From the IMG/VR virus record IMGVR_UViG_3300028886_000051: a stretch of DNA of 64,000 bases. One strand, written 5' to 3'. This document shows positions 3,922 to 58,779 of the stretch, in pieces; position 1 is the first letter of the stretch, and every line of letters starts with the position of its first letter. The notes under the pieces are model-generated. The model saw nothing but the letters and a program-made list of their open reading frames with translations. It searched no databases and was not told the origin of the DNA. This stretch comes from a virus. Its lineage: Duplodnaviria; Caudoviricetes. The position numbers and the translations under genes are program-made.

Positions 3922-6900
3922 TATGAAAGGCTATTATATTTCGGATGCCTATATGGGTTATATCCCAAGTATAGGCAAATATCAGCAGTTTGAAAGCGAA
4001 AGTGCATACATACAATATATGAAGGAGGTTGAAGGACAATGTTAGACTACGAAGACTTTTATAATATTGCCGAATATGGCAATGAACATTGGAAAGGAAA
4101 CTTCACACCAAAGGAAGTAGCTTGTAATGCCTACGATTATAAGGTAGAGTATGCTTTATCTTTAACACAAGGTAAACCGACTCATACAATGATTGAATTA
4201 TGTAAATTAATCTGTGAGGATATGGACTTTGCAGATTATACAGATATTCAGGAAGAAAGCAAAAATGATTTAACACTTGAACAAATGGAAGAGATTCTAG
4301 AAAACTTTTTATTTATTGGAGGTGTAGATTATGAAATGGATTGAGATTTTACAAAAAGATAACTACGCATTATTACAAAGCGAAAGCGATACACAGTATG
4401 CAGTTGTTAGTGACTATGATCCAACGCAACCTGAAGATCAGCAATGGTCAAGTGGAATATATTTTACTTATTTCCAAAACAATCTTAAGAAGATACTATA
4501 TCTTCAATCGGCATATGATTGCTTCATGGAAAAGACAAATCCAGATTATATCCCACGGAGCAGATTAGAGGAACTTGCAACATTATTTAAAGATGGACTT
4601 ATCTCTGATGACAGAGAAAGTGCGATGGAATATTTTAATGAAGTTTGTGAGATGACAGATGAAGAAAAAACATATTTTGGAATAGAAAGTGAGGAATAGA
4701 TATGGGACAGTTTAGTTGGATTTATTCAGATACAGGCAAACAATTATTGGACGATGTAGAAGCAGATGCTTACTTATTAGTTCCGAAGCCATTTCAAAAA
4801 GAATATGGTAAGTCAATCCATGAGACATTTTATGACGGTTATGGAAATTTCGGAAAATATGATGTATATGATTTGTTGGCTTTGTGGAATCGTGATTATT
4901 TACCAATGGAAACAAAAGTGTTGAGCGAACCTAAAATTGAAAATTACGGTGGTTTATATTCATTCGAAAAAGACGAACTTCGTAAAAATGGAATGACGGA
5001 AGAAGAAATTGAGAAGATGGACAGAGAGGAAAGGCAGATTTCTTATGATAAAGCCGTAAAAAGATATAAAAGGGGTTTGCAGAGAATTAAAGATTTTATG
5101 AATCGTATTCCTGATTTAGAAATGAAAGAAAAATATGGTAGAAGCTATCTTCGAGAAATTGGAATTGATATTGGTTGTTATGATGAAGACAACGCAAAAT
5201 TAAAATATCCGATTAAAATTACCACAAAAGAAATGGAATATGAGGAAGTAGCACCATCAAAAAGTGATCCAAACCAGGGATGGGGAGAAGAAGATAATGA
5301 TGAAGATGAGGAATAGTGGTAAGACTAAATGGATATTTGTTTTGAAAAAGGAGGAATAGATATGGGATTTACAGAAATGGATGAAGTAAGAGTAAGAACT
5401 TATGGTGGTGCTATCGGCACTATTGAAATGGTTATATATGAAATGGTAGATAGTAAGGAAACAGATAATGTATATTGCTATGAAATGGAAATCAATGGTA
5501 AACATGGAGTCATAGTCTATCCAGACGAGATTGACGAATAAAGCTGATTATAGAACAGCAAATGCGTGTTTCTTTGGATTGGAAAGGAAGGTAAAAGAAA
5601 TGAGAGAACATTTTATTAAATTTATTGATGAAGATGTAGACGGATGTGGAACAGATGTGACTGTACTTGCAAGAGTTTATGGAAATGATATTACAGTTGG
5701 AACTATTGACAGAGTTAAGGATGCTATCTGTAATTACAAAAACGAAAATGAAGGCGAATGGGACACAGATGGTTGTCTTGAAGCTGCACAAGACCAATTT
5801 GAAGCAGAGGGTTATGAGGTTAGTTGGATAAATGAAGAAATGGAAATATGTTTTTAAGAAATTCGCATTTACTTTGGAATTGGAGGCGATTAAATGAGCT
5901 ATGTAATTGTTAAAGGCAAAAGTAATAGAGCATTAAATGATTTTGAATTTAATGGATTACCAGTTAAATCAAATGCTACTATGTGGCAAATGATTGAAAA
6001 TCCTGAATCATGTTATTCAAATAGACTATTCCACTTTTACAATGATTGTGCAAGTAGCTATAGGACAATTGAAGAAGCAGAACATCATATTTCTTTGATA
6101 AAAAGACAAATTGAAGAAAACAGAAACAGATATGAAAGTTGTATTAAAGGTTCAACGGATAAAATGCTAAAGTTTGCTAATCAGTTGAGAGTGATTGATA
6201 TTGAAGAAAGTAATTTTAAGCATGATGATAATTATGCAAACGCAAAACCTATATGAACTTGAAACTAAGATTTCTTAGGAAAGGAGTGAGAAAAATGATA
6301 ACGGAAAATACACGGAAACAGTTAGCAGATTACAGAAAGCATGGTAAGAAGCTCAAATATCTTATCAATTATCTCATGGGGTTAATTGAGGACGAAGATG
6401 ATTTCGAGGAGATAATTATAAGAGAAATGAAAGCTCTTGCATTCAACGAGGATGAAATTGTTGAATGCCTGGAATATGATTTCGGATTGGATATGAGTTG
6501 GCATCCAATGAGTGTAAACTATGGAAAGTAAATAACAAGTAAACGCAAAGGCAGTTAGGAGAATAATCTACTAGCTGCCTATTTTATTACAAGGAGGAAA
6601 CGAATTATGTACGATTTTACAAAAAATGAAATGGAAATTATTAAAGACAACCTGATGTCATTTATTGCAAACTTTGGCAAGCCACGGATTAAGCGTGGTG
6701 ATGACGGAGAAAGTTTTTATGTATTCACTGATGATTCAGATTCATGGAGACAGTATTGTTACAACATTGATTATCTGAATGGTTGGTTATATGGATGTGT
6801 TCAGACAGCTTGTGGTAATCCAAAGCGAGATGAAGAAATGAGAGAAATGTGTGATAGTGCAAGTTTCAGAGAAAGATATGCAATTTTATATGGTGAAAGA

Positions 6901-7035
6901 AAAACAAAAAATATCAACGGTCATAAATGTTATGTATTTACATATTCAGAAGACGATGAATATCAGGATACAAACGGAGCTTTATATGACACAGTAACAA
7001 GAAGTTGGAGAAATTAGAAAGGCAGGTTGATTAGT

Positions 7036-7995
7036 ATGAAATATACAATAGATACATTAAGAGAGATTAACGCAAGATTTTGTGGTTCGCATATACTTAT
7101 GAATTACGATGTAGATAAGGCAAATATGTATGTTGAACTTATAGAAAATACACGGTCTGAAAAGACTCCAAGTATAGGTGATTGCGTTAGATATACAAAC
7201 GAATATGGAGATTACTATGGAGCAGCTCATATTGAAAAAGCAGATGCGAATGAAATTTATATCTGTGAACGACCATATACACCTTTTGTTCATGAATACG
7301 AAGGCAGAATTAGTTGTAATACAAGTGGTGGAGCATGGACACATTTACCAACAAGAGAACTGAAATATATAGGTAAAATTGAAAAGAGATTTTGTGATTG
7401 GGGTAATTGTGGAGGCTGTGCAGATGGTGCTATTGATTTTATAGCGGAAGTAAATTTATGGGAATATGTAGATAGTAAAAATCCTTTTGTAAGTGAAAAT
7501 GGATATAAGTTCACAACAAAGGATTTTGATAAACAGTATATATCATTCAATCCTAAAGATAATTCACCTTATGTATATTTTGGAGAAGGTTGTGCATGGA
7601 AAAGTAAAACAGATTTATATGCTTATCTGAGAACATATAGAGCAGAAATTTTCAAAGGACATTGGCAGAATCAGTTCATTGTGTGGACTTGGAAAGAGAA
7701 ACAGCATCATGTATCACCAACGGAATTTGATAGTCTTAAATTAGAAGAAGATACATTCCTGATGAATGGTGACATCATGAGATGTAAAAGAAAATATGAT
7801 GAAATTACTCATACTGTACACACATATTATGTTTGGTATTGGGACGATCCAACTAAAGACTTCTTTGAGGCAAGTGCAGAACAGAATAAAATAAGAGAAA
7901 AATATTATACACTTGATAGAAAAACTCCAACATATATTGTTGCGAGAGAAGAAATAAAGTCTGGAATTGAAATTCCAAAACATAAGGAGGTGTAA
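7036..7995 (+). CDS. Conserved mobile-element protein, DUF4121-like
   Basis: Motifs SGGAW and FCDWGNCGGCADGAIDF, recalled from that family; ATG 7036. Confidence 0.55.
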   Translation: MKYTIDTLREINARFCGSHILMNYDVDKANMYVELIENTRSEKTPSIGDCVRYTNEYGDYYGAAHIEKADANEIYICERPYTPFVHEYEGRISCNTSGGAWTHLPTRELKYIGKIEKRFCDWGNCGGCADGAIDFIAEVNLWEYVDSKNPFVSENGYKFTTKDFDKQYISFNPKDNSPYVYFGEGCAWKSKTDLYAYLRTYRAEIFKGHWQNQFIVWTWKEKQHHVSPTEFDSLKLEEDTFLMNGDIMRCKRKYDEITHTVHTYYVWYWDDPTKDFFEASAEQNKIREKYYTLDRKTPTYIVAREEIKSGIEIPKHKEV

Positions 7996-11659: not shown

Positions 11660-13255
11660 GCCACCTTGCTTCTGGAAGGAGTGAATTAAAATGATTTGTG
11701 CATTGATTGAAAGAATAGAAGAAGGATACAGATTTGATTGTCAATTTATGGGATATGGAAACCATACTCTTAGAGAAGCATTTAAAATGGAAGGAATAGA
11801 TATTGAAAAAGAATTAGACAAAATGAAGATTGGCGAAGCTAAAGTATGGAATATTGGTTGGTTTCCAAATGATATTTGCAAGAGAAGATATTTACCTGAA
11901 AAGGTAATAAAATGTGTGTAGACAATTCCAAAGGAAAGAACTGTTTCTTGAAGAGAAAGTGAGGTAGCGAATATGAAAAAAGATTTTGAGATTGAATACA
12001 GAGATGAACAGATAAAGGATTTAAAAGAAGCATTAGCAGGAACTAAAAGAGAGACAGGCTATTTTAATCCATTAAAAGGTAAATGGGAAATAAATTATTC
12101 CTCGATTCTAACAAAGTTAATTCAGGAAGCTGGTCGTTGGTGTGAATATTATGCAAGTGATTTGTTTGTTACATGGAAGTATAACATTGATAAAAAGTTG
12201 GATGACGGAACTATGGATACGGATCAGCTTGTATTCGGATTTAGAAAAGATGGTGTAGATCATAAAGAATGGTATGAATTGCATAAGAATGACACAGGCA
12301 GATATAGAGCGGTGTGGTTCTTAGATGTAACAGTTAATGATGGAAAAATGGAAATGGTGTTACACAAATAAAGGAGAGTGATTAGTATGTACAGAGTATA
12401 TCAATTAACAGACGAAGAGAAAGATAAAATTGTGCGATGTCGTTGGGATGGAGATACACATTATTATGATGTATTTGAATCACAAGAAGAGTGCGATGAA
12501 GAACAGAAAAGACTAGATAAAATTGAAGCAGAATATAAAAAACAGAAAGCTGATTATTTAAAAAATTGTAAGGGAGAGTGATTAAAATGTTTAAATATAT
12601 TATCAGTTATGATGGCGGTCAGTTAAGAGACAGTGGAGATTTTGAATGGGGATTATTTAATTCCTATGGTGAAGCTGAAGAAGAAGCCAATAATGCAAAA
12701 GAAGAATACATGAGAGATTGGGATATTGAAGGCAGCGGATATGATCCTGATGATTTCTGTATTGAAATTGAGGAGGTGTAGATTATATGTTAAATAACTC
12801 AAATTTAAGAACTACAAAATGTATAAATGTATTTTCTGATATGAATACATGGATTGATTTTGTAATCATTCCTTGTAATGATGAGGATTTTACAAAGGCA
12901 GAAGAGATCATTAGCAAAGCATATGATGATTGGTGGACACTTCCTGATGCAGAGTTTGAACCAATAGCAGATTGGATCTGTAGATGTCTGAATAACAATG
13001 ATATTGAGTTTGAGATTTATTTTAAGAATGAAGAGGAGGAGAATGATTAAAATGAAGAGAACAGCAAAAGAAATTAAGCAGCAAACGGAAGAATGGTTAG
13101 ATGAACGGTGGATGATTGCAAATATGAAAGATGCAAGACCACAAGATATGAGTTATTACATGGGAGCATTAAAGGCTCTTGAATTTGTAGGTTACGAATG
13201 GAAGCGTGATGCAGATGGAAAGCATACATTATTTAAGTAGATTGGAGTGATTAAA

Positions 13256-13444: not shown

Positions 13445-16400
13445 AAGGAGGAGAATTATGCCACACATGAATTTAAGAATAACAAAAGAACAAGAAAAAA
13501 TGTTAAATCAGGAATTTGAGGGAACAGAATGGTGTCCACATTGTAATATGGAAACAGATTATAAATTTAATCCAATGAAAGATAAAAATATAGTGTGTGA
13601 ACACTGCAAAACAGAAATAAAGCCTTGTTCATTATGTGATAGTGGAAAAATATGTGATGATTGTGAAGATAGAATCAAAGCTTCGCTATTACATTTTAAT
13701 GGATTGTGGAACAATGAAGTTAATGGAAAATATTAATGTTAAGGAGAGTGATTTAAAATGAGATACAAAAATATAACTGCTGATTTCATTGATAGAGATT
13801 TTCTTTGTTTTACCAGTGATGAACATGAAGGGACTATTGCTATCGTAACAACTGATGAACTTATTGATTTAACAAATGAGATTAGAAAGAAACAAGGTAA
13901 TACAGATTTAGTTGGAATTGAATATGATAATAAAGTTTATTATAACTTTTATCTTATGTTCAATACCGAAAAGAAGTCAATCAGTATTCAAGCCGTATGT
14001 AATTATGGAGAAAAAGATGATGAAGTGTATTATGAACTTCCTATGACAAAGAAAGAAAAAATAAATGTAATATGGAAGCTTGTTAATATGCTTGCAACAG
14101 AAATTCACAATATCTAAGAAATAGCAATTTCATTTTAAGATTGGAGGAACAGAATATGTTAGATTATACAAAAATTACATTCAATGAGTTAGATGACACA
14201 GACAAGCCATTACAGGCATTCTACAATTATGATTTAAAAGAAAGCGAAATTGATAGCTTTTTGGAAGAGTACGCAACTATTGAAGAAGTTCCAGAAGGTG
14301 TATCTATTCAGAAAGTAGAACTATGCTTAACGATTTACGCACAGCATGATTTCAAATTAGAAGCTTGTTGCACAGATACAAATAACGAACAGTATTGGGT
14401 TGAAATTAATAAGCAGTTTACAAATGCAGATGAATTTATTCAGATGATTCCTAATTATGGAAAGATAAAATTATAAGAATGGAGGTATAAGATATGCACA
14501 TTCACACAGTAGAAGAAGATTATGAATATAGAATGAAAAACATTATGAAGAAATTTGTCAAGGATTACGGACTTGAAAGTATTGATGATCCTGAAACATT
14601 ACAAGATACATTGTGGTATGACTATGCAGAAAAATTTGCTCATGCAGTGCTACAAGATATGAACGATTTTTCTGGCGATGAACTATTTGAGATTGGAGAG
14701 TGATTTATATGTTAAAGGCAATAAATATTAAATGGGACACAGACGGAGATATGGAAGTGTTAAATGAACTTCCAACGGAAATGATTATTCCTGATGAACT
14801 AGAAGAAATGTACAAGAAAGATAAAGAATATGCACTTGAAGAGATTTCAGATTGGCTATCAGATGAGACAGAATTTTGTCACGCCGGATTTGAGATTGAG
14901 AAAGTGATTACAAAAGAGTCTGTTGAGAATGATTTATACGATTTCTTCAATGACAAAATGGAAACTGGTGATGCACCTGAAATTGAAGGAGTGTGGAAAC
15001 AATATGATCCTGCAAACGGTAAGATCATTACTATTGATTGTGTAGGTGGGAAGCAGATTAGATTGATTATTCAGGTAGACTAAGGAGTGATGATATATGA
15101 AAACAATTATAGTAACTATTGAAGTATATGATAATTCATCAGTAGAAGATGTAGAAAGAGCAGTTAGTGCAGGGCTTGATAGTAACGGAATTGATTGTAC
15201 TTATGATGTGGAAGAAAAAGAAGAGTAAACAAGAGTTTCAAGTCTTTTTAGAATGGAGGTTTATATGAAAACAGAAAGATTATTGAGAGCTGATGGGATA
15301 ATCTATGGAAATGTGAAGGGATATTACGAAGATAAGCATACATATACTTTTGTTATTAATGGAAAAGATATTGTGTTTCCAAAAGCAAGATATAAATTAA
15401 ATAAAAAAGATAGATATTATGATATAGATAACAGATGAAATGAGGATTTATTGTGAAGATTGGAGGAAAACATTATGAGTAAAGATAGATGGGAAGTATT
15501 AAGAAATTGTGCAGATTTTCAAGAAATCTATGACTATGTATTTAATAAATATGGAGTTGAAGATTATTGCTCTATACTAGATAAAATCGAAGATGAACTT
15601 GAAACTTATGAGAACTCATCAAGTGAAAAATGGCAAGAAGCAGTAGAAAACGGAAATATTCCAGATTCGATTCAGTGGTTTTGTGGAATGATTGATACAG
15701 AATACTTCCTGAACGAATGTTGGATTTAAAATATAATGAAACGATGATTTACTGGGAAGATTGGAGGAAATCGAATGGAAGAAAGAATAGAATCTATTAA
15801 AAATAGAATAGATGATTATTTACAGAATGCAAATAATGAGTCAGATTGTTGTAAAAAAGAAGGATGGATTGATTTGGCAGCGAGATGGGAACAATATTTA
15901 AAAGAAATATCAGGTATTGAATATAGGAAAGAAGAGTGTGGTTTATCTAGTATTTAAATGAATAGGAGTGATAATATGAATGAAACGCAAGAAAAGGTAT
16001 ATGGCTTGTTGGGAAGTTACTTAGAATACTGTAAGACAAACGGATATACAGATTTCAGAATGTGGTGTGAAGATAATATTGATACTATTAATGAAGATGC
16101 ATTAATAGAAGATATTTACGAAGAAGTAAATTATGTAGCTGATAAATTATTTGAATAGAAAGAGAGGTTGATTATATGACTATGCAAAAAGAATATGAAC
16201 TCAATAGAAAATGGATTGTAGATGATGTTGGAGAAACTATTGGAGAAACAAACTTTGTTATTGCTGAAGAATTTTTGTTAGCACATTGGAAAGAATGTCC
16301 CAATTATGATGAGGAGGAAAATATTGAAGATTTCTTAGAAACATATGTTCCTGAAGAAGATGGGCAGTATTTATATGAGTTAGCTAAAGATACAGGAAAT

Positions 16401-17250
16401 TTAATTGAAGATATTGGGCAAATTCTTTATTAATTAAAAATAAAAAGGAAACGGAAATTTCAAGTTTGAAAGGAGATTGATGATATGACAGTTATAGAAT
16501 TTTGTTTAAAGAAAACACAAGTTGGAGAATTGTGTGTATTCAGAGGTGATGGTTGGATTATAGGTACAACATGGATTGACCATGAGGATTTATTTACAAT
16601 GGATAACGAAATCAGGAATAAAGAAGTAAAATCTGATGAATGGGGCACATTAACAATTACAACAGAACATGGAGATAAAATTCAAATCCCATGTCATTAT
16701 ATTGATTTTTAAATAGAAAGCGAGGTGAGAACAATGATTAAAGATATGAAAACATATTTTTCAGAATGGTTTAATATTATCCCGAAAAGTATAGCTTTTC
16801 AATTATGGAAAGATAAAGACAAAAGCTTTTCTGTATTACGTTCTGATGGTACAGATTGTTATGCAGATTGTTACAATAGTTGGGAAGAGATTCCTAAAGA
16901 TGCTTTGTTTGGCATCGAAAAAATAATAGTAATATAGATTTTAGAAAGAAGGTTGATTTTTATGAGAAGAGAAGATTTTAAAAAGATTATTAAATTAAGA
17001 AGTTGCTGGAAAATTGATAGAAGAAAGGGGGATTATAAATTATTAAATGGAAACCATTTGTCAGACTACATAAGAAGTTTAGTTGAATCTCAAATGAAAC
17101 TTGACAATTTGGGTATAAGAGAAAATGGAGATTTGTGTTTCGTCTCAGGTGGCGAATGGAATACAGAAACAAACGAGTTTGATAATTACACTCTTATGCC
17201 AGCGTTTCAAGGGGATGAAATCTGTTCTTACGATGAAATGGAAAGGAGAA

Positions 17251-17679: not shown

Positions 17680-20600
17680 GATTAATTCCTCCGATGGAGA
17701 ATATTATAACAGAAAAATTAAGAAAGGTAAAAGGTAAATATTATGAGAGAATTTAAAATTAAAAACATGAAGTATAGAATTGTAAACAGATATACAGGGA
17801 ATTGTGAAATTAATGAATATAATAAAAAATATAACTTGTTATCTTTTAATCAGAGATTGAATGGTTGGACAAGAGTTGCATCTTGTAACACTATTGAAGA
17901 AGGCAAGAGAATTGCAGAAGAAATTAAAATATAAAATGAAAGTCCTTGTTATGGGACATACAATAGTATATAATTTAGATATAAAAATAGAAAGAAGGTA
18001 TTATTATGACAGGCGTTTTAACTATTATAGTATTTGGAATTCTTTATTATTACAGTAAAAAAGTAGAATCTTGTAGGAAACAAGATATGTATAACCATTT
18101 AAATCAGCAGTCAAGAGATGAAATGGAAAAGTGGAGAAAATAAGAAAGGTAGGTTGATTATAATGTTAGGTTTATTGTTTTTAGGTATGATTGGTGTTAG
18201 CGGTATTAAAGCAGCTTATGATAATTATGAAATGAAAAACTATACACGAAAAGTTGATAAAGATGGAAATGTTCATTATATGGACAGATTGTGCAATGAT
18301 TACATCAATGGAGAGCGAGTAAAGAGAGTTGAAACAACGGATAAAGATGGAGTAAAATTATATTCTACAGTTGGTATGAATAGTAGTAAGGTGTATGATA
18401 CTTCTTATGGAAGGGGTACACAGCAGTTATTTGCAATGAGTGAACATGATAAACAGGAAAATCTAAAATACGGAAAAAATGTATATAGTCAATACAATCC
18501 ATATTTCGGAAAAACTGTTACAACTGAAATTAGTTCAGGAAGAACGATTACTTGTCTGTTTAGCGGAAAAAATAGCAAAACTGGAAAAGAGTTTTATAGA
18601 GTATGGTATTTTCGTCCAGAATGTCAGGGAAAACTTGATTATAATAAGACTGTTGAAGGAGATATGGGTATTGAAATTACAAAGGAAGAATTTAGTAAGT
18701 TAAAATTTGGAGTTTTGACATGTAAATCAATACCAAGTGATTATAACGTGACTAAAAAATTATGGGGGTATGATTAATGAATAAGCAAAGAAGAGAAAAG
18801 ATAAGGCAACTCAAAACTCAAATTGATTTGATTAAAACCGATTTGAAGAAAGTTTCAAGTGAGTTATCTTCTATATTAAATGAAGAACAGGATGCATTTG
18901 ACAACATGCCAGAAGGATTACAAAGCAGTTATAGAGGAATGTGTTCTGAAGATGCAATTGATAGCATGGAAGAAGCGAGTGATAAGCTGGACGAAGTAAT
19001 TGAATTATTGGATGATATTATGTAGAAAGAAGGTAGTTTTATATGGTAAAGAAAAGTTTAAATGGAATAAAAAGAGTAAGATTTTGCGATTATACAGAGT
19101 ATGAGTCTGGAAAATCCAACAACGGTGGTTGCTATGGTTTTTGGACTGATTATGATCTACTTGAGAATGGAAAATGGGAGGTAAGTTATGGAACAACAGC
19201 AGATTTTGAATATTGTCCTGTGTGTGGCAGCTTCACTGACCATTATGAAGGTGATGATTGTTGTTATGAATCTGGTTACAGTTGCGGAGAGTATGATACT
19301 GTGACAGAAACTGAATTACTTAAACAAATTAACAAATTTGAAGAAACGGATGATAAATATATTGAATATAACTAAATAATAGTTTCTTTTAGAAGAATGG
19401 AGTGAGATTTATATGTTTAAGTGGAAAGATTATGAGGAAAATACGGCACTATTCATTGATGGAATTAGTGAAAATGTAGCAATTTTAAGATACAAAGATT
19501 TTCAGTTGACAGATGCAGCTACAGGATTAAAAGTGAAAATGAAATCGTCCAATATTGATGAGGCGAAAGTTGATTCTGAAAATTTCTTGAAAGAATTTTG
19601 GAACAGAGTAGAGAATAATTATAAGAGAAACTTAGATGCATTAAATTAGAAGCCAAGTAAACCAAGTTTTCATGTGATAGAGGTGTTAATATGAAAATTA
19701 AAAGAATAGTGTATTATTCAGTACCAAGATCAGAATCAAGCATTTGTTCTTGTTGCGGAAAATCTATTCAGAATATATGTAGCATTGAAACCGTAGAAGG
19801 AGAACGTTTTAATTTTGGAACAACATGTTTTGATAAGCTGATAAAAGATAAACTTCGGGCATTCCAGAGAAAAGAATACAATCAAGCGATAAAATTTCTG
19901 AAGGGATATTATAAACAACAAAAAGTATGGGAAAATATGACAAAAGAAGACTATCTTGGTTCAGAAATGTATAGAACTGCTTGTATATGTGATGGTGGTG
20001 CTCCATGGGAAACAAAAACAGGTCTTGACTCATTTGAAGACTATAAAAATTGGATGTTAAATGATTTCTTCCCATACAGAATTGAACAAGAAGAAAAGGT
20101 AATTGAGAAATATAGTAGAATTGATTTTTGAATAACAATTTGAAATCTAAGTTTCAAAGAAAAGGAGAGCAATATGAATATAGAGGATAGATTAAGGCAA
20201 GAACATGATCAGTGGTATATTGATATTACAGACATTGCGATTAAAATGTTTGGCGATATTGTTGATAAGGTAGAAATTACTGATTTTTATGATTATACAA
20301 AAGAAGAAGCAATTGAAGGCGCAAAAGTTCTTATTGAAAAATTAAATTTAAAAGATTCTGGGATTACCTTTGATGGAGAAAACATGCTTGTTACTTTTAA
20401 AAATGGAAAGAAAATTGAAATTTGGAACTCTGAATGGGGTGGAATTAGATTTCCAGAAGACAATGAATTTTAATTTTATTATGAAAGGAAAACCTATGGG
20501 ATATTCGGGAACAATTAAAAATGTTATTACTAACATAACTACTCAAAATGATATATATGTAAATATAACCAGTACAACTAGAATGCATATATATAAAGAA

Positions 20601-21377
20601 GATCTTGATAAAACATGGTATATAGTTGCTTGCGAAGTTTTAAAAAATAAAAAATATATAGAAGAATCAAATATGTCGGCTTGCAACATAGAAGATTTAA
20701 AAAGAATTGTTGGAATTAGCTATATACATTGTAATGAATTTTAACTTTCTTTGGTTGTGAAAGGAGTGGTCATATGATTAAAATAATAGGTAAAACTGGT
20801 AAATCAGAAATTGCAAATGCAATTCAGAAATATAGTGGAGCTGAAATTTATTCATATTATAATACAATGCTACCATTTGAGCATTGTTATCATGTCAATG
20901 ATGATGAATGTAATGTTGTAGAGTTCTGTGATTTTATAGTAGATAATGTAAAAGAAAAGGTAAATGAAAATGATGGTCTTCCATTAAGTATGATTGTGAT
21001 ATATACAAATCTATCAGATATATCTGATACTGGTCACTTATATGCTTATGCAGCAAGGCTTGAAGAAGTAGAGAAATTAGTTGGAACAGTTGTTGTAATA
21101 AGCCATTGAAAGAATGATTTATAAACATTTTACAACAGATTGGAGATGATGTTATTGAAAAAAGAAAAAGAAGTAAAAGAACTAATGATACTTAGAACCA
21201 GAATCTGTGGAATTATTGATGGTGCAATAATTTCCACTATGGAAAGTGATGATGACATATTAAAAAAGTACAAAGTTTCACTACAAGAAACTTTAAAGGA
21301 AATTGAAAGTGATATCAGTAAATTAGAAGAGGCAGAGTAACATCTGCTTCTTTTTATATGAGAAAGGAAGTAATACA

Positions 21378-21631: not shown

Positions 21632-22612
21632 ATGTGTTATAAAATAGATATGCAGAATAAGAATGCAGAAAAACTCAATAGGAAACTTAATGAATTAAAT
21701 CTTCCTATATATATGAGAAAATATTTTACTGTTAAAATAGAGAGTAAAGCAGGTGCATTAAATTATCTTGGTGTTATTGTAGATTTACTCAATTGGTTTA
21801 TTGAAGAGAAACTTATTGATAAAACAAATATTCCAGATATTAAGCCTTCAGATTTTAATAATATAATGGCAGAAGATATTACATTATATCTAAAAACAAA
21901 AGAGAAAAATGGAATATCACCTACCACTTTAGAAACAAGAAAAAATATTATACGCAGCTTTTGGAATTATATTAGTCGTGTAAAAGGAACTGATATTTCT
22001 GATAAATTCTTTGATGATGTGAATTATAAGGGAATTTCATCAGGAAACAATTTAATTAAAAAATTTCCAACTGAGCTGCAATTAAAAGACATGGAAGAAA
22101 GAATAATGTGGAAAAAAGATATTCCTGTTAGAAATAGAAATATTGCTATCTTTCGTGTGTTAAGAGGAACTGGAATAAGAGAATCAGAACTTGCAGGGTT
22201 GGATTTATCTGACTTGCACTTAGATGAAGACATGCCATACATCACTATTCTTGGCAAAGGTGTATACAGAGAAATGCAAAATAGAATTGTATATCTTAGC
22301 GGAACAGCTTTAAAAGCCATAAGAGAATGGTTAGAATACAGAAGCACATTAGATAATATTGTAGATACAAAAGCAGTCTTTATTAATAAAAATGGAAAGC
22401 GTACAACAGAAGACAACATAAAAGCAATCTTTAAGAATTATGGAAATGGAATTACTCCACATATGATGAGACATTATTATGCATCTGTAATGGCTAGTAA
22501 GGGAAATATTGTTTTTGCACAACAACAGCTTGGACATAGTAGTATGAGTACAACAATTAATAATTATGCTAATGGTTCTATTGGAATGAAGGATGTATTG
22601 AAAAATATGTAA
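21632..22612 (+). CDS. Tyrosine recombinase (XerC/D-sized, no arm-binding domain evident)
   Basis: Full catalytic set: GIRESE (R), GKG (K), TPHMMRH (HxxR), LGHSS (H), TINNY (Y). Confidence 0.92.
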   Translation: MCYKIDMQNKNAEKLNRKLNELNLPIYMRKYFTVKIESKAGALNYLGVIVDLLNWFIEEKLIDKTNIPDIKPSDFNNIMAEDITLYLKTKEKNGISPTTLETRKNIIRSFWNYISRVKGTDISDKFFDDVNYKGISSGNNLIKKFPTELQLKDMEERIMWKKDIPVRNRNIAIFRVLRGTGIRESELAGLDLSDLHLDEDMPYITILGKGVYREMQNRIVYLSGTALKAIREWLEYRSTLDNIVDTKAVFINKNGKRTTEDNIKAIFKNYGNGITPHMMRHYYASVMASKGNIVFAQQQLGHSSMSTTINNYANGSIGMKDVLKNM

Positions 22613-23719: not shown

Positions 23720-23733
23720 AAAGGAGTGATGAA

Positions 23734-27773: not shown

Positions 27774-27814
27774 CAAGAATCGCACATTTCTTCGGAATTT
27801 TGGAGGTGAAATAA

Positions 27815-34272: not shown

Positions 34273-34280
34273 ATGACATA

Positions 34281-38622: not shown

Positions 38623-38767
38623 AAGGAAATTTTGGTTTCTTGGCTTATCACGAAAACTATACAATATTTATGGACAAACAAGAGAATATAACAATGTAAT
38701 TACAATTAAAGAAAGGAAAAACGTTCACATGTGAGTAAAGCTGCGCAGCTACTATCGGTGAACAAAT

Positions 38768-39640: not shown

Positions 39641-41083
39641 AATCTCAACCTCTGAAACGCCTTAAAATCAAGGCTTTCAGAGGTTGAAAAAGCAAAGGAA
39701 AACCACGTTTCCTTCGAGGAGGTGATTGATTGGATACATCGTGTGAAACTTGTAAATGTAACACCTGTAAGATGAATGAAAATGGTGGCATTTATGGTGG
39801 ATGTTTTGATTGTGAAGATTGCAAAGAACAAGATTTACACTGTGAAGATTGTTCAATGTATGAATATGACAAAGATAGAATGAGTAATTAGGAGAAATTT
39901 ATGGGTAAATCATTAGAATTTGTAAAAGAACGAATTACATCAGGTCAGTGCAATGGCATGGAGAATAATAAATATGAATCCATGATTGAACAAGATATAC
40001 GAGAGTTATTTACGGTTGTTAATTACACCAAAAATGGAACAATTTTAGCAGATGTACCTTATCTTAAAGGCGACAAACCTTATTTTAATGTGATTATTAA
40101 GCATGATCCAGATGCAGATTTTGAATATTTCACAATGCAGCGTTGCAATTGTGATGGAACGTTTGTATTCTTTCAAGATTTAATGGGTGAGTGCATAGAT
40201 AAAATGATTCATCTTAAAACCTGTAATGTAAATAAGGAGATTCCAAAAGATTTAACTGGATATTCTATTATTTATACGGTTGGAGATTTTGTATTAGCGG
40301 AAGAGTTTGGAGATGAATTTGCAACCAAAGAAAAGCCTTGGATGCAGAGTAGATTCACCGCTATGTTGCCAATTAAGTTTGATATAGTGAAGAATGGAGA
40401 ATAACAATATGAGAGCATATGAATTACGACAACATGACGTAATTTCCTATTATCCTCCACAACCACACAAACAGGAATATAAACTTGGAGAATACATTTC
40501 TATTGATGAACTAGCTGAAGCAATGTTTGGTTCACCTGCTTTAAGATTAGATAGAGATAAAAATGAGGACAAGATACTTCAAGTTATAGAAATAAAATAT
40601 GTGAAATTTCCTTGGTGGAAGTTTTGGAAGAGAAGAAAATATGTTGAAGAATATCATTTAGAAGTTATGTAGGTAGGTGAGAATATGTTTCAAAAATCAG
40701 AAAAACAGAAAATATGTGATTGGGTTGCTGATGTAGTGCAACATAATATTCAAATTCTCAATAAATTATCAGAAAAGAAAACACCACAAGACATTGAGGT
40801 TATTGAGAGTAATGGTAAGAAGTATATTGCATTGGATGATGTACATAAATTACTCGATGATAGATTTGAGGAACATAGATTATTAGGAGAATAACAATAT
40901 GAAAAGATACAAATTAACCAGAAGTCCTAACCCAGAAACTCATGCATCTGGCGAAGTAATATTTATAAAAGATGAAAATGGTAATGAGCTTAATGTCGGA
41001 TTTAGCGATCAATGTGATGCATTTGATAAGAGTGTCACCGCACACTCGTGACTTCAGTCATGAGTTAGGTGACACAATATAAA

Positions 41084-42774: not shown

Positions 42775-44415
42775 TATCTGAGTTAAGAACTGTATGGTAG
42801 ATAAGTAATCCGATTTCTAAAGAATTGGAAGCACGCCACTTTAGTGGTGTGAGTGTTCACTGATGCCGAAACCATGTGTGAGTTTATGAGAGTTTATTCA
42901 AATAATGATGTTTTTGGCGAATCGAAGTTAGCTTTTGTACCTGCTAATATTAAACAGTTATCACATAAAAAATATGCACAGATGTATATTGACAAGTTAC
43001 AGAGTATTGTAGATCAGATGGAGGAATAAAACTATGGGTAAAGTTGTAGATATGAGTAATTTTGATCCGTTATTTGATAATTTGGAAAAGTACGTGAATA
43101 AACAAGGGTGTACTCTTGGTAAAGATGCTGAGAGGTTACAAGAATTATTACATTCAATTCAGTATTGTTATATACATGGAGTATTAACAGAGAGTCAAAA
43201 TGAATCAGCTTGTAAAAAATTTAGAAAACAGTTTCAGAAAGCTTTATATGAGAAGTAAGAATGAAGCATTTCCTTAGGAAAGGAGAACAATAAATGGAGA
43301 CATTTTCAATAGTAGAAAATATAAATGTGGATAAGTTGAATACGAAAATTGCAGAATTTGTATACAGAGAAGGGCATGATCCTTATATATTTGCAAATAA
43401 AGAGACACTTGATGCATTAATTAAGCCAATTGAACAAGCTGAAATGTTTGCAAATTCTTGGGGAATTGGACTTGTAAGTTCATATAAGGGTTGTCTTACT
43501 GGTATGTATCGTGGGAATAAAATGTTCAGAGATGATACATTAAAATTCGGAGAGATTGAGTTGAGATAAGAGAATAAATACATATAAAGAGGTGATTATT
43601 ATAAAAGTTATTAAGAATAATTTTAACAAAATCAATTTGAATAAAAACATTGAAGAAAAATCTAAAAAAATACATATCTTCTGTGAACATTGTGATTCAG
43701 AATTAGAAGTATCTAAAGAAGATACTCACATTGGATGGCTTGGTGCAGCATTTGTTAAGTGTCCTTGTTGTGGACAAGAATCAATGGTTGATGAATTAGA
43801 AGGAATTACATTAACAAAAGACAATATTGATTATCCTATACATTTCAACAGAACTAATAAGGATTTAAGAAATGTTGTTGAAGTGCAGAAAGATAAAGTT
43901 ATTGAAGAAATTCAGAGAGGTATTGATTATTTTAGAGCACATAAAGATGAATTCTATTGGTACACATGTCATGGAGACTTGTTTTTGATTATATTCAGAT
44001 ATGAAGGCGATGAAGAATACTCTATATTGGTCACAAGAGATTTTTATGAGACAGATATTCCTTTTGAAAAGGAGGATTATAATGACTGATTTTGAAACAT
44101 GGCTACATGATTTTGGATATGAGCATATTTTTCGCATGTTAGAAATTCGTAGACCAGGACAATATACTCCTTATGAGATGGATAAGAAATTTTCGGATCA
44201 GTCGCTATATTTAGATAATCACTTTAGACATATTCAGATTAAAGAAGCTATTGAGCTTCCTGATAAAGATATTCTGATTGGATTCAGAGAAATATATGAT
44301 AGTGAAGATCTTGAAAAGGAATGGGAAGAATCGGTTATCTATTATAAGAAGTTGAGTGAGATTGAACTTACATATTTTCCAGATGACGATAAAATTGAGA
44401 ATTGGGAGTGAGAAG

Positions 44416-47253: not shown

Positions 47254-48598
47254 GAATGGAGAATATTAAAATGGCAGTATTTAAAAATTTTAAAGACGAT
47301 GAGCTGATTGTAAGCTGTAAATGTGGATGTGACGAAGGTATCCACTTCAAGATTTATGATTATGGAGATGGCGATTATGCTTTCTTAACATATACAAACG
47401 GTAACTTTTACACTCAGCAAAGACCATTCTTTGAGAAGTTGAAGAAAATTTGGGCGATTATCAGGAATAAGGATTTTTATTATTCTGATATTGTGCTTAC
47501 AAAGGAAGATTTTAACGAGTTTAAAGAATGGATTAATAGAAAGTAGAGTAACAAGAATTTCAGATTTTATTGGTTTTGAGAAAGGAGAATATATGAGCGA
47601 AGATAGACTTAATTATATTGAAAAAGAAATTAGTAAAACACCACTTTATTCATTGCTTGGAGCAGATGGCATTGATGAGTTGAAGAATAGAATCATTGAC
47701 ATTATTTGTGATCAGGTTCAGAAAGATTTGAGAGATAGTTCGTATTATCTTATTAGTCCAGATGATGTCAATGAGACTCTTGAAGAGAATATTGTTCAGG
47801 AAGCTATTAATGAATTGAAAGAAGAGTGGAAAGACAAACTTAAAGAATACATGTCTAAGAAACTTGAAGCGATGATGAAGTAATTGGAGGTAGATAAAAT
47901 GTCATATTGGACTTATATCAACGGTACAATAACAGTTCATCCTATGGGGAGAACACAGCCTGAGAAGAGATATATTCTTGAAACAGTGCTAAATCATTTG
48001 CCTAGAGTAACAGGTTCTGAGGGTGACATGAATACATATATAATTCAGAAAAATGGTTATAACAGTTCATGTTCATGCGATGAATTCGGCGAAGTGACAA
48101 ACAATTTAGTAGATAGATACGGATATAAGAGTCGTAGTAGAGGATGGTTACAAACACAGGATGAATATATACTTGTTGTAAATGCTGCTTTAAGAGACAG
48201 AGAATTTGAACAGACTTATAGAGAATTTATGAAATGGTTTGTACGACTTTGTAAAAGAGTAGGCTGTGAAGATGTTCTTGTAGAAATCAAAGGATATGAT
48301 AAGTCAACTGTTATCAAAGATAGAAATATTCAGAGAAAGAAATATTCTTATAAGAGTGTTTTCGATGGATTATTTGAAAATCCAAGTTGGTGCAACGACA
48401 GTAAAGATGGATACAAAGAGCCGAACTGGTGTGAATTTATGATGTGGGACAGATCAAAAAATTCTAATTATCCTATGACTCTTGCTTACAAATATTTCAA
48501 CGATGAAGAAAATGACAAGGAAGTTGAGAGAAGAATGAATTATAGATAACTTCACAAGAAAGCAACATATCCTTGGATTATAGAAAAGAGGTGATTAA

Positions 48599-49078: not shown

Positions 49079-49454
49079 TACATTGGAGGTGAAACCGTAA
49101 TGGATGATTATAAGAATTATATTGTAATTGGAAATGAATATAACGGGTTAGGAGAATCTGCCGATCCTGATAGTTGGGACAGTGTAAAATATTATTTTAA
49201 CACAGAAGATGAAGTAAAAGATTTTATTGATAGAAATCCATCGTTTTTATTTCATTTAAAAGCAATTTACAAAGTAGAAGAATTAGATATTAATAGTTTT
49301 ATTCATTAAAGGTTAAAATAACAAGAATCCAATCTTTCATTGGAAAATTTTGTAAAAATAACAACATAAATGGTAGTTGCAAATGCCATAAAATAAAAGA
49401 AAGGAAAAGATAATCCTAGGTAAAAGGTTATGTACATAACACTCAGGTATATGA

Positions 49455-50744: not shown

Positions 50745-52017
50745 CAGAGAATAAATAATTAGAGGTCACAAAAGCCTTGAAAAATAAGGCTTTTGAAACC
50801 TCAAAAGCCGATGAATTTTTTCTTTCTTTTGGACAGATTGGAGGTGTGAAATGAAAAAGTATTATAGACAAGCAATCGCATTTCTTTTAGTATGGTTCTG
50901 TAGTGGTGTAACGATGTATTCATATCAAGCAGAAAATAAAATACTTGGAATTACTTTTACACTTTTAAGTTTTTTATATTGGTTCATTATAGACAAAGAT
51001 GATTAGGAGAATAAATACATGACACAATTACCAAAAACGAGTTGTAGTATTCCAATGCCAGAAGTTGCAGCTATTTATAATCCAAAAGTCATTGCAAGAA
51101 TAAAGCTCTGTGGTGGTGCTGTAACGATTAATGTTAATGAAACAATGGCATGGAAGAAACCAACTGATGAGCAGATTAAAAACTTACATGATTTATTTTG
51201 TATTGATGTTGAGATATTAGACAGAGGAGAATAATACTATGAAGGGTAAATATAGAGGCTGCGACATAGAAGTAGAACGAGGTGGTACAGAGTTCTTAAC
51301 CTTTGCAGTATTCGATGATGGATATGAAGTGACAAGTGGATTTTCTGAAAGTAGTGACACTGTGAGAGATTATTTCAGTTATATGAAAAGTGTAGTAGAT
51401 GACTATAAAGAACATCCAGAAGATTACGAATAGGAGAATAACATTATGAAGATTATAGCAGGTGATTATTTCGGTAAAAATATTCAGTTTGTGTGTAGAT
51501 GCTGCAACTGTGTATATGAAGTTGAATCAAAGGATGATTGGAATATTCGAATGGAGAGTCCATATCGTTTTGGTTATTTAATCCCTACTTACAATGTTAT
51601 GTGTCCTAATTGCGGTCATGAAGAATATCTTGGCTGTGATCCAGACGATTTAAAAGGAACGGAACTGGAAAACCTACATTGTCCTTGGATTCCATTATTG
51701 AAGAAGAGAGAAGATTGGAATAAACGATATAGGGTTGAGCCAATAAGAGAATAAACATTTGTGAGGTGAGCAGATGAAAGCATATAAATGTGATATTTGT
51801 GGTGAATATTGCGATTATTCTCATGATATCTATGGTAACATAATGGTGCGAACTAAAAAGAAAAATTTTAAGAAAATGAAATACATAAACGAATTATGTG
51901 ATAGTTGTTTTGAGGATTTACAGAGATATATGCAAGATAAATATTTTGAGCATATGGATAAATATTCAGAGTAAAGATTCGTTTCTTTTGAAATTTTAAC
52001 AGATAGGAGTGATATAA

Positions 52018-53148: not shown

Positions 53149-54955
53149 TTAAAGGAGATCGAATTAAATTAGTTCGTAAGATGGGTGTGTTTGATAACAT
53201 TGGTGAGATTTGTGAAGTGACTGATATTCAGGAAGGTGGAGTAATCTGCTTTAAATTCGGTGGCTGCCATCTTGGTTGTATGTCATATGACGAGTATGAA
53301 AAGTATTTTGAAAAGGTTGAGACACCTGTAAAGAAACCTTGGAGCGATTGGAGTTTGGCACACAAACTTACTTTTATTGATATTAAGGGCGATGAAAAGA
53401 CTATTAAATATCAGTATAGAGATAATGGTAAGAGAGTCCAGGTTAGAAGTGGTGCTTTGAAAGCAGGTTCATCTTGTTATGACGAGGACGAATTTAGTCT
53501 TAGTAGTGGTTTGGAACTGGCAGAGATGAGATTAGTCGTAAAATACCTTGATAATCAGGTTAAGTCGATTGCAAAGGCGATGTAAGGATAAAGCGGAGGA
53601 ATTCTTATGACAAGAACGTATTGTGATGTATGTAACAAAGAAACAAGTTCGGTAGCAGAATATATGTTACCAAAGCGTGTGCCGAAATATGCGACAGACA
53701 AAGCGGGTAATAAAATAATGCCATTTGGAGAGACCGTTAAACCAGTAAAAAAGGAGTTGTGTCCAAGATGCTCTCGTTTATTAAATGTATTTATAGATGG
53801 TTATTTAGCAGCTTTGAGTACGGAAGATGATAAATATACAATTCAATTTAATCTTATTCACGAAAGAGAATAACAACATATAGGAAGTATTCTGAAAGAG
53901 TAATCAATCAGATAGTGGTCACAGGTTCATGACCAACATACATAAAAGTCTATGTAAAGAGAAATGGTTCTCATGAATTATCGGTTTCCTTTGGAGGTGA
54001 CAAGTGTTTAATATTGGTGAATTGGTTATAGAAAAAATACAGAGTTATGAATTATGGACAGATGTCCCTAGCTATGAAAGGCTAGATGTTGTACATTGCG
54101 TATTATGTTTAATTCCTAATCCTTATGATTCGATAAGAGAATATTTAAAAAGAAGGAAAGAACATAATAAAAAATATAAAGAATTTTGGTCTAATGCAGA
54201 TAAAGTAATTTTCAATAATGATAGAAGTATGTACAGAGCTGCGATTATGACAAAATTAGCAGTGAATGAAGAGGCGAAGTAAATGATAACACCACCAGTA
54301 ATACAAAGTTTAACAAACGAAAATACAATATTGGCAAGTGCTTCTATAGAAGATTTGCAAGAATATAAGAAAAATGCTTGTAAAATTCTTAGAAGTCAGA
54401 CGCAGTGTGCTACTGCAAAAATCGTAGAAGAATTGATTGACCAGGAAATTATGAATAGAAAAATTATTGAAGAATGGAATAAAATCTATGAACAATTTCC
54501 TGAACATGTAGGAGTGTGATACCAATAGAATTAGAGAATAATCCAAAACAGATTGAAGAAAATCTTAAAACTGTACTCACATTAGAATATATGGGAATTC
54601 ATATCGAAGACACAAAAGAGCAAGGTTTTAAACAATTATATTATTTCTCAGTGCCAGAAAGATCTACACTAAAAACCGAATCTGCAAAAGAACAAGCTGA
54701 GACAGCAGATGATTTAATTCAAGTTGCGAAAGCTACTTTGACAGAAATGATTCTCGATTCGTGCAAATCTGAATTTGACGATGAAGATGAAGAATTTTAT
54801 AAAGATGTAGAGAATAATATCTCAGACTATGCTTTGTTCTTTGCAAAAGTCAGAAAAGGAGAAGTATGGAATAAGGAAATGGGTAAAGCTGCCGTTAATA
54901 AAGCGGTTGAACTGTTAAAAAACCTATCGTACAAACAGGTTTAGAAGGAGAATAA

Positions 54956-55027: not shown

Positions 55028-55818
55028 TAATAAAAGTACCAAGAAATTTCGATTTTTTGTGAGGAGGTGAAATCATGGAGAAAGTAATTAAATATAGATG
55101 TTCTAAATGTGGAGAATTATTTGATACACCTGAAGATGCTTTAGCACATGAAATAAGACATGAAAGAATTGAGAAGGCTAATGAGATGCTTGATGAAGGA
55201 TATACATTAAAGCAAATCAATGACGAGTGTGAGATTTGGGATTCTGTGCCAGAACATTTAGAGAATGTAAATAAAGATAACTGTTTTAAAATTAGCTATT
55301 GGCAATGCTGCGACAAACCCGCATATCAAATTATGCATATCTTTTTTGATGGAAGAGTAAATGTAAGAGGTTGTGGTTCGTGGAGTGGATATTATGGCAA
55401 TTGCCTTAGATTAGATAGTCGTGATTTGGAAGATCCAAGACCAAAGGAAGAGTTATTTGTAGATGGTAGATATACAAGTAGATGGGAATTATATTTGGAG
55501 AATATATAAGTGGAGGTAATTATAATGACAAGTTACGAATTTGAAAAAGCTGCAAAGAATGCAGTGATTCAGACATTGAGTGAAAACATTAGTATTGACC
55601 AGTTGGATCTCGTGTGGTTTGCACATGAGTTAGGTTATAAGAAGTGTACTATTTGGGGACAGCCGATGGGTAACAGATATGCAGAAGTTACTTATAACAG
55701 AGATAAAGATGAGATGTATGTAGATATTTATCAGAAGATTATCAACAATAAGATTTCGTCTGATGAGTTCAATTTTGAAGCGTAAAGGAGAATAACATAT
55801 TGAAAGAGAGGTACATAT

Positions 55819-56667: not shown

Positions 56668-57291
56668 ATATAAAGGAGAATATACATATGAGTAATTTAA
56701 AGCAAAAATTAACAAAAGGTGGCGCAACAGCAGTTATTGTCATTACAATTTTGGCATTATGTTATGGACTTAGTTGGATTGTTACATGTGGAATAATCAA
56801 GCTTATTACAATGTGCTTTGGTTTGACATTTAAATGGTCTATTGCGACTGGTATTTGGTTGATTATCTGCATTTTAAAGTCAGTTTTCAATGTAACAGTA
56901 AAGAAATAAAAGCCGAGTAAACTGACATTTCTTGACCAAATTGGAGACAAGGAGGAATAAAATGTGTTCTGATACAGTAATTGATTTATTAAGCATATTT
57001 TTAATATTGAGTATATTATTTGCAGGATTCTATATAGCCTACAAAGCGGATATCGAAAATATATCTGTTCTCAATTCTATAAAGAATTTTATTATTGATT
57101 TATTTAAAGATAGAAATATTTTAGGTAAATTTCTTTCAAGTGTTGTATTTTTATTATCTATTCCAGGCATGTTATATATGATTCTTTTAGCAATAGTTGA
57201 TGTGTTCATAAAGTTATTTATAAAAATATGGAAGTTAGGAAATAGATAAAATTTTATATAAATAAGAGAATATATAGTTGGAGGTGAGAAT

Positions 57292-57597: not shown

Positions 57598-57699
57598 TCA
57601 ACCAAACAATTCTCAATAAAAATGAAAATCAAATAGAGAATAAGTAAGTGAAAGGAGTGAGTGGCAGCCTTAAAGATATATCGCTCTGAGTAAATTACA

Positions 57700-58524
57700 A
57701 TGTACGAACCAGTAATTAAATGGAGTGGAAGTAAGAGAAGTCAGGCAGAGAAAATTTTAACATTTTTCCCAAAAGAGATTGATACATATTATGAACCATT
57801 TTGCGGTGGAGCTTCAGTTTTAAGAAGACTTTTCGATAGCGATATACGAGTTAAGCATTATGTATGTAGTGATTTGAATAGTGGGCTGATTGACTTATGG
57901 AATGAAATCATTAACAATCCGTTAGAAGTTTCTACCTATTACAAGAAGCTTTGGAATGAATTAAATGTGGATGATGATAAGCAACGAAAGAAAGAATATT
58001 TTGCAAATGTTAGAGACAGATATAACAAAGAACATAATCCTTTAGATTTTATGTTTATTATGAGAACAACAACCAATGGTATGCCAAGATATAATCGCAA
58101 TGGCGAATTTAATAATTCATTTCATGTGACTAGAAATGGTATTATTCCTGAAACATTTGAGAAGATAATTTTTGAATGGAGTCAATTATTGAAACAGAAT
58201 GATGTTAAATTTATCAGTTGTTCGTATGAAGATATAAAACCAACAGAGAATGATTATATGTATCTTGATCCACCTTATGCAAATACAAAAGGTATGTATT
58301 ATGGAACTATTGATTATGAAAAATTTTGGGATTATTTAAGACAGTTACCATGCAGATATGCTTTATCTTTTGATGGCAAGAGTGGTGATATAGATAATAC
58401 TTGGAATGTTCCTAAAGACATATATACAACACATGAGTATTTACTAAGTGGTAATAGTAGTTTTAAACGTACAATTGGCAAATCGAACGACAGCATTGTT
58501 TACGAAAGTTTGTATGTAAAGTAG
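57700..58524 (+). CDS. Dam/D12-class DNA adenine methyltransferase
   Basis: KWSGSK, YYEPFCGG, RYNRNGEFN and YLDPPY. Confidence 0.9.
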   Translation: MYEPVIKWSGSKRSQAEKILTFFPKEIDTYYEPFCGGASVLRRLFDSDIRVKHYVCSDLNSGLIDLWNEIINNPLEVSTYYKKLWNELNVDDDKQRKKEYFANVRDRYNKEHNPLDFMFIMRTTTNGMPRYNRNGEFNNSFHVTRNGIIPETFEKIIFEWSQLLKQNDVKFISCSYEDIKPTENDYMYLDPPYANTKGMYYGTIDYEKFWDYLRQLPCRYALSFDGKSGDIDNTWNVPKDIYTTHEYLLSGNSSFKRTIGKSNDSIVYESLYVK

Positions 58525-58779
58525 AGAATATATATAAGTAGCAAGAAACCTGCGTTTCATTGGTTTCGCAAACCTAGTATTTACAATGGTTTCAGAGGTC
58601 AAAAATTTCAAAAATGCTCAAATCGAGCAAAAATCCCTAATTTTCAATGATTTTTAGAGAATAATAAAAATGAGGTGTTGAAAACCCTTATAAATCAAGG
58701 GTTTTACAGTATCAATATCAAGAAACAGAGAATATAAGAATAGTAAGAAATCACTGTTTCTTTGGAAAATTAAAAAAGA

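Follow-up and report, generated by a model that had tools for sequence, protein, structure and literature searches.

The accessory regions of phage genomes, which carry host-takeover and anti-defence genes, turn over very fast, and how they are reshuffled without breakage of the genome is an old question, framed by modular evolution, by the boundary sequences of lambdoid phages and by the promoter-early stem-loops (PeSLs) of T4-type phages (Arbiol et al., 2010, PMC2839356; PMC4122927). The PeSL, the nearest published concept to the element described here, combines a sigma-70 promoter with a terminator hairpin and, as its copies are all alike, recombination between neighbours yields deletions and mini-circles. 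Here we analyse a 64,000-nucleotide stretch (the window) of the Caudoviricetes record IMGVR_UViG_3300028886_000051, from a bovine gut sample, in which a palindromic site of the form GAAA-N6-TTTC recurs between genes. Accessory modules of this phage and its relatives are bordered by such sites, 14–18 bp long, the arms of which are common while the 6-bp centre is unique to each position. The order of the centres is almost constant across the family, while unrelated cargo takes the place of what lies between them; it is at the site that shared DNA gives way to unshared DNA, and exchange between relatives is in register.

Integrons are arrays of single, mostly promoterless genes parted by imperfect palindromes, the attC sites, which measure 57–141 bp, fold as single strands and travel with the cassette; the order of the cassettes is free, and an IntI-type integrase adjoins attI and the Pc promoter. 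The pdif sites of Acinetobacter plasmids, which are served by XerC and XerD, are 28 bp long (11-6-11), with distinct XerC and XerD arms and alternating orientation, and flank gene modules that move between unrelated plasmids. The core sites of tyrosine recombinases (loxP, FRT, dif and the lambda core) have inverted arms around an overlap of 6–8 bp in which the two partners need to be identical. Among elements bound by regulators, 434 operators consist of 4-bp arms and a 6-bp uncontacted spacer and lie in promoters, while mycobacteriophage stoperators, about 30 in number, occupy short gaps inside operons, are asymmetric and orientation-dependent, and bind the immunity repressor. The SPBRE boxes bound by the recombinase-fold protein MrpR (SroF) in SPbeta (PMC10516654) are likewise asymmetric, with about ten in each genome, in promoters. 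A preliminary description of the window had read its sites as an integron- or pdif-like system that shuffles accessory genes, with a genome-wide operator of the MrpR kind as the alternative.

A palindrome with a fixed 6-bp centre

Exact matches to GAAA-N6-TTTC number 15 in the window against 2.67 ± 1.68 in shuffled sequences, none of 100 of which reached 15, and when spacings from N0 to N14 were compared only N6 was enriched; the motif is therefore enriched over background, and the fixed length of the spacer, as originally described, is upheld. Thirteen of the 15 matches are intergenic, though non-coding DNA makes up 19% of the window. A weight matrix spanning site positions −5 to +18 found 35–39 sites on the + strand, compared with 2–7 in Markov controls, nearly all of them intergenic and ranging from 5326 to 58760. 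Our list over the same range contains 37 sites (Table 1), including four weaker ones whose centres recur in relatives, and agrees with the roughly 34 recurring intergenic sites counted before. Sites are placed behind a stop codon, usually 16–31 nt 5′ of the next start codon, and the genes 3′ of them form tight clusters with intergenic gaps of 2–22 nt; every gene of the window lies on the + strand and the G+C content is 31%. The single genes said to be bracketed by consecutive sites are so bracketed (5559/5858; 15226/15437/15738; 19373 through 21108; the radical SAM gene by 26758/27777, Dam by 38626/39698 and PAPS reductase by 49325/50813), as is the NAD-salvage operon (30553/34337). The reported absence of sites from two parts of the window also stood, the weight-matrix scan placing no intergenic site in the regulatory core (21.2–26.4 kb) and none among the replication genes 3′ of 58760.

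The constrained positions are an A at −2, both arms and a T at +15, with −1 and +14 free, and the extended dyad of the preliminary description thus proves weak. Base preferences are two-fold symmetric (A at −2 with T at +15; G/T at 0 with C/A at 13; a pyrimidine at 4 with a purine at 9), and this symmetry, together with a separation of 10 bp between the centres of the arms, suggests a dimer on duplex DNA. Pairable combinations at every variable position pair occur at the level predicted by independence, in keeping with the earlier remark that the arm variants do not covary. Folding of the 24-nt site RNA gives a mean of −1.85 kcal/mol compared with −1.10 kcal/mol for shuffles; with folding energies this close to those of shuffled sequence and arms that do not covary, an RNA hairpin was rejected.

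A sigma-70 promoter at the sites was likewise rejected, since a consensus scan of the window puts none there, which also speaks against the sites being promoter operators; upstream of them there is a mild excess of −10-like hexamers. Promoters are few in the region, and separate promoter-type elements, in the form of tandem palindromes 31–32 bp apart, are found at four large gaps, so that most GAAA-N6-TTTC sites lie inside long operons.

Near-constant order of centres, exchanged cargo

Relatives were collected with three window proteins as queries against IMG/VR phage contigs, each giving 29–80 loci, mostly on contigs of 100–190 kb, and the comparison set comprised about 176 related loci from gut phages of about 150 kb and from one Eubacterium segne prophage. 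Over 3.3 Mb of relatives the N6 form has 802 matches against 112–226 for other spacings, and the complete genomes G001 and W01 contain 31 and 38 matches respectively, against 6 for a control pattern. In SPbeta itself (NC_001884) it is AAAA-N6-TTTT that stands out, with 57 matches where other spacings average 24; the N6 spacing is retained while the arms differ, which suggests a site-binding protein that co-evolves with the arms.

Across the family 44 six-base centres recur, each in 4–33 flank combinations, and 30 of the 37 window sites carry one of them. The same centre was found with both flanks unrelated in 7189 context pairs, compared with 252 by chance, and in 129 loci the order of centres follows the majority in 5518 ordered pairs and contradicts it in 66. 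A slot between neighbouring centres holds cargo of 57 nt to 6.3 kb with 5–21 unrelated beginnings. This cargo is slot-specific and moves between slots rarely: flank clusters beside a clearly different centre amount to 14 of 207 on the right and 9 of 209 on the left (4–7%). None of the loci examined has a centre in duplicate, the sole tandem same-centre pair being a false hit, and hence no locus offers a pair that could yield a mini-circle.

Individual relatives illustrate the pattern. The E. segne prophage has 11 of the window centres, in the order of the window and with different cargo; its NAD-salvage slot, of about 190 nt, is read as containing a mini-gene, and its Dam slot measures about 220 nt. 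The Dam slot of G001 holds a different gene, and three window sites share their centre with this genome, in the same order, where both flanks are unrelated. The distant W01, whose proteins are 35–39% identical to those of the window, shares five centres where 0.41 would be expected; four of the five are in family order, and flank homology was not found at four of the five.

The edges of homology coincide closely with the sites. When the window is compared with relatives by BLAST, block starts cluster at site positions −3 to +1 and block ends at +12 to +18. Pairs that share the left flank alone remain about 95–100% identical through the centre and the right arm and then drop to 40% at +14, while those sharing the right flank alone rise from about 50% at −1 to 98% by position 4; such an ungapped comparison of flanks can read small indels as non-homology, and gapped BLAST and single cases inspected by eye gave the same edges. 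The centre is fully identical in 92% (left) and 95% (right) of these one-flank-sharing pairs, and the variable arm positions, averaged per centre, follow their own flank (left 0.94/0.93 against 0.70/0.82; right 0.96 against 0.79). The earlier expectation that breakpoints in relatives would map to the spacer is thereby borne out in a specific form, with the 6-bp centre kept on both products and each arm tending to accompany its flank. Because the centre is kept and the arms tend to go with their own flanks, the unit common to recombinants is essentially the centre. Such a geometry is what one would look for in a core site whose overlap is 6 bp, and short-homology recombination would give the same pattern.

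In pairs whose flanks are both 70–93% identical (15% mismatch; 32 pairs from 21 families) the centre differs by 3.6%, with mismatches of 7% in the left arm, 0% in the right arm, 38% at +14 and 23% at +16/+17, while in chance matches to the pattern inside genes the ‘centre’ differs by 9%. These data, together with the centres shared with W01, indicate that the centres are kept more strictly than the surrounding genes.

A separate observation concerns the edges of the site. Among pairs with flanks at least 95% identical, positions −1, +14 and +16/+17 differ in 15–16%, about ten times the rate of the flanks. This edge variability could reflect a mutational or conversion hot spot, or these could simply be the only unconstrained bases of the gap.

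The phage family and the genes around the sites

The gene content of the window is SPbeta-like: its regulatory core has recombinase-fold genes together with genes for a MazF-like toxin and a helix-turn-helix protein, and Sak4-like and single-stranded DNA-binding protein (SSB) genes and several DNA methyltransferases are also present. A prophage of the family is present in E. segne BX4, and IMG/VR lists one relative as a provirus; among phage records none near-identical to the window was found. In SPbeta the SPBRE boxes 5′ of aimR, yonT, yonX, yorZ, yosX, yopV, yopM and yorE share a core unlike GAAA-N6-TTTC.

The protein encoded at 21632–22612, which had been put forward as the recombinase of the sites, gives a generic PF00589 match and keeps the R, HxxR, H and Y catalytic motifs. 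Homologues occur in 14 loci at 31–90% identity. In the complete relative G001 tblastn detected no close homologue, which tells against this assignment, and Pfam shows a 246-aa member of the family at the same place. The protein has no similarity to MrpR/YopR or YopP and a weak similarity to YomM. Each complete genome checked has three to five PF00589 genes, one conserved copy of 346–361 aa being present in all five genomes. The Sak4-like (AAA_24) protein and SSB are 90% and 74% identical respectively between the window and W01, where most other common proteins are 35–47% identical, a sign of recent exchange between distant members of the family.

At the regulatory core, 23686–25905 encodes a 739-aa protein in which an N-terminal sigma-70 region 2 and LuxR/GerE-type helix-turn-helix are fused to about 500 residues that match Bacillus phage proteins annotated as DUF262; G001 (63%) and W01 (35–39%) conserve the protein, and a strong sigma-70-like promoter lies at 22780–22808. 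The tandem palindromes mentioned above are of 12 bp, spaced 31–32 bp apart, and occupy the four largest gaps (8803–8846, 30490–30533, 34280–34322 and 54955–55028). Their core matches what we take to be the NrdR-box consensus (CwAtATaTwG), and an NrdR-like pattern with at most two mismatches has 15 matches in the window against 7.7 expected. Their location 5′ of the NAD-salvage and other operons suggests promoter control by host NrdR or by a phage repressor.

Hairpins rich in G+C and followed by no T-run stand just 5′ of some sites (39635–39685, 50760–50800 and 36470–36520), and the one before 39698 is conserved in G001 and moves with the downstream block. Leaders of about 130–150 nt separate the Dam and PAPS-reductase genes from their sites (38640–38767 and 49339–49454), and the first 25 or so nucleotides of the Dam leader are kept in G001 (4943–4975) despite the different gene. 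Window positions 28724–28889 match G001 in inverted orientation (153953–153789), adjoining a direct match from 28870, so that the DNA next to the gene for the C5 methyltransferase has been locally inverted, or duplicated in inverted form; on window coordinates, both ends of this G001 record come to about 30.2 kb. One slot contains a TnpB/Cas12f-like gene (41437–42774) in what looks like an active IS200/IS605-type element (41040–42860). The copy of this gene in G001 is 82% identical, about 110 kb away and on the other strand, and contigs of several runs break around it, at 41038–41069 and at 42861.

Table 1. Positions of the GAAA-N6-TTTC-type sites and of two candidate protein loci in the window.
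Feature	Position	Strand	Remarks
Site, variant arms	5326..5339		Family-wide centre
Site	5559..5572		Family-wide centre
Site	5858..5871		Family-wide centre
Site	6261..6274		Family-wide centre; G001 homology begins at right edge
Site	11934..11947		Family-wide centre
Site	14118..14131		Family-wide centre
Site	15226..15239		Family-wide centre; G001 homology stops at right edge
Site	15437..15450		Family-wide centre
Site	15738..15751		Family-wide centre
Site	16448..16461		Family-wide centre
Site	19373..19386		Centre also in G001, both flanks unrelated
Site	19658..19671		Centre also in G001, both flanks unrelated
Site	20142..20155		Family-wide centre
Probable site, weak arms	20465..20478		Centre one base off that of next site
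Site	20736..20749		Family-wide centre, present in distant W01 too
Site	21108..21121		Family-wide centre; final site ahead of regulatory core
Site	26495..26508		Identical centre at syntenic G001 position (L001:13826)
Site	26758..26771		5′ of radical SAM gene
Site	27777..27790		Family-wide centre, present in E. segne prophage too
Site	28723..28736		Family-wide centre
Site	30553..30566		Left border of NAD-salvage slot (3.8 kb here; about 190 nt in E. segne prophage)
Site	34337..34350		Right border of NAD-salvage slot; homology stops at right edge in 24 relatives
Site	36539..36552		Homology begins at left edge in 13 relatives; contig joints at 36552
Probable site, variant arms	37032..37045		Centre outside recurrent set
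Site	38626..38639		Left border of Dam slot; centre also in G001 and E. segne prophage, with other cargo
Site	39698..39711		Right border of Dam slot; conserved hairpin directly 5′
Site	43259..43272		Homology begins in 7 relatives, stops in 12, runs through in 0
Site, variant right arm	47555..47568		Centre one base off a family-wide centre
Site, variant right arm	48558..48571		
Site	49325..49338		Left border of PAPS-reductase slot
Site	50813..50826		Right border of PAPS-reductase slot
Site	51972..51985		G001 homology begins here
Site	53975..53988		Family-wide centre
Site	55043..55056		3′ of three NrdR-like boxes
Site	56918..56931		Centre also in G001, both flanks unrelated
Site	58545..58558		Syntenic G001 centre one base different
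Final site	58747..58760		G001 homology stops at right edge
Tyrosine recombinase-family gene	21632..22612	+	R, HxxR, H and Y motifs present; candidate site-binding protein
Sak4-like annealing protein (AAA_24) and SSB	59499..60902	+	Candidate machinery for short-homology exchange

Possible roles of the sites and their likeness to known systems

The reading that we prefer, tentatively and with slightly less than even confidence, is that the sites are position-labelled exchange joints of SPbeta-like temperate phages of gut Clostridia, bound by protein and used in register. A dimeric protein would bind both arms, one helical turn apart, and the 6-bp centre would act as a homology check that limits crossover to same-numbered sites. 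The partners would be co-resident phages, namely a prophage and a superinfecting relative, and whole modules would be swapped in register with the gene order undisturbed. The enzyme would most likely be one of the three to five tyrosine-recombinase-fold proteins of each genome, with the centre as its overlap region; alternatively, annealing by phage Sak4 and SSB might use the 14–18 identical bases as minimal homology. A bolder form of the proposal, in which a dedicated phage recombinase synapses same-numbered sites only and so provides an addressable recombination map common to SPbeta-like phages, with arms that differ by subgroup, appears to us possible but doubtful.

Several observations weigh against exchange joints of this kind. 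Junctions fall in 24 of 33 gaps with sites and in 66 of 82 without (p = 0.45), and while linkage is broken across 97% of site gaps and 82% of the others, the difference is not significant when the comparison is with other gaps of more than 25 nt. The prediction that breakpoints would lie at the sites is thus correct in that homology blocks start and stop at site edges, where gene content differs, and incorrect in so far as siteless gaps are equally broken. Where a gap has no site, junctions are centred on the ribosome-binding site, with a decay of homology over 10–15 nt. Their equal frequency and this placement imply that exchange is possible without sites and that any common short sequence can be a joint, and the compactness of gaps, together with selection that keeps genes intact, would make junctions sharper as well. 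In some cases replacements stop 25–55 nt off the sites, the Dam cargo for instance at 25 nt and 55 nt from its two. The conserved arms, of 4–8 bp, are short for a tyrosine recombinase; neither a cognate enzyme nor, in the assembled contigs, which were the material searched, a hybrid site or a circle was found; and the strong constraint on the centres does not follow directly from either mechanism. Finally, the centres differ from one another no more than random 6-mers do, nearest-neighbour distances being equal, and selection for mutually distinct centres was accordingly rejected.

A different account, which we hold to be possible if on balance doubtful, makes the site an operator or roadblock first and a joint passively: a dimeric helix-turn-helix protein would mark the start of each small operon with a roadblock or shut-off operator, in the manner of a stoperator, and the look of a joint would result from short-homology recombination and selection on the only conserved DNA of the gap. 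The palindromic arms with 10 bp between their centres and without covariation would suit such a protein, as would the position of the sites 5′ of the first gene of packed clusters, 16–31 nt from the start codon, within operons of a region with few promoters. The ribosome-binding-site-centred junctions show that passive joints exist, and the phage encodes Sak4 and SSB. However, uncontacted spacers give no reason why centres should be stricter than coding DNA, the persistence of centre order in relatives with unrelated flanks is left unexplained, the sites do not overlap promoter-like sequence, and no binding protein was found. That the operator might be the one read by an SPbeta-type master repressor (MrpR/SroF), the sites being the counterpart of SPBRE in this family, is suggested by the recombinase-fold genes at the repressor position of an SPbeta-like phage and by the binding of MrpR to a repeated element in SPbeta (PMC10516654). 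We regard it as very improbable, given that SPBRE is a different, longer and asymmetric box in about ten promoters, that SroF reads 24 bp as a monomer (doi 10.1101/2025.11.27.690993), that the sites here are some 37 in number, palindromic and outside promoters, and that the recombinase-family protein of the window keeps its catalytic residues and is dissimilar to YopR; this alternative of the preliminary description is consequently not supported.

We give similarly little credence to mobile cassettes of the integron or pdif type, which the 21632–22612 recombinase would cut out in circular form and insert at whichever site. Single genes bracketed by sites, a 6-bp central region and a recombinase gene nearby are what such cassettes would display, and of the original claim it remains true that the sites mark differences in gene content. 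Yet the sites are positional and not cassette-borne: no centre occurs twice in any locus, cargo is slot-bound and rarely changes slot, and order is collinear. The sites, at 14–18 bp, have no hairpin potential, and the recombinase is patchily conserved. Contigs that join back against the window were sought and none had good support, and those joints of low depth may stem from other strains. An RNA-level element of the 5′ leader, whether it serves as hairpin, as processing site or as translational operator, would agree with the constant position just 5′ of the ribosome-binding site and with the sites all being on the coding strand of a window whose genes share a single orientation; it is nevertheless very improbable, as a 4-bp, mostly A–U stem folds barely better than shuffles and shows no compensatory change, and the two-fold symmetric base preferences indicate duplex DNA.

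If the sites are indeed position-labelled joints, these joints are explicit, numbered and more deeply conserved than genes, and they would furnish a coordinate system with which to compare accessory genomes throughout a very large phage family of gut and Bacillus. The model is directly testable, SPbeta and phi3T being genetically tractable, and were a centre-checking recombinase involved, the family would hold dozens of naturally occurring recombination sites that are orthogonal to one another. Our search of the literature found no paper describing numbered centres in conserved order.

Comparison with the systems outlined at the outset shows both likenesses and differences. They resemble tyrosine recombinase core sites in having inverted arms around a short central region, but their conserved arms span only 4–8 bp, there are dozens to a genome with different overlaps, and several recombinase-family proteins are candidates for their enzyme. 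As in pdif, gene modules lie between sites with inverted arms and a central region of 6 bp, though here the arms are identical, short and palindromic (4–8 constrained bases), the cargo is bound to its slot and the site order is conserved. The arrays of single genes recall integrons, but unlike attC the sites are 14–18 bp long, form no hairpin and belong to a position in the backbone. With 434 operators they share the dimensions of arms and spacer, differing from them in lying outside promoters, and with stoperators their number and their short gaps inside operons, differing in their two-fold symmetry; neither of these operators has position-specific centres conserved across relatives. SPBRE is likewise a repeated element, in the same group of phages, with another sequence. 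The PeSLs remain the closest parallel, as they too are short and conserved and stand between the small accessory genes of hyperplastic regions, where the insertions, deletions and replacements of relatives end at the element and are read as modular shuffling. The sites described here carry neither the promoter nor the terminator of PeSLs and, unlike them, have unique centres in a fixed order that bears no footprint of duplication.

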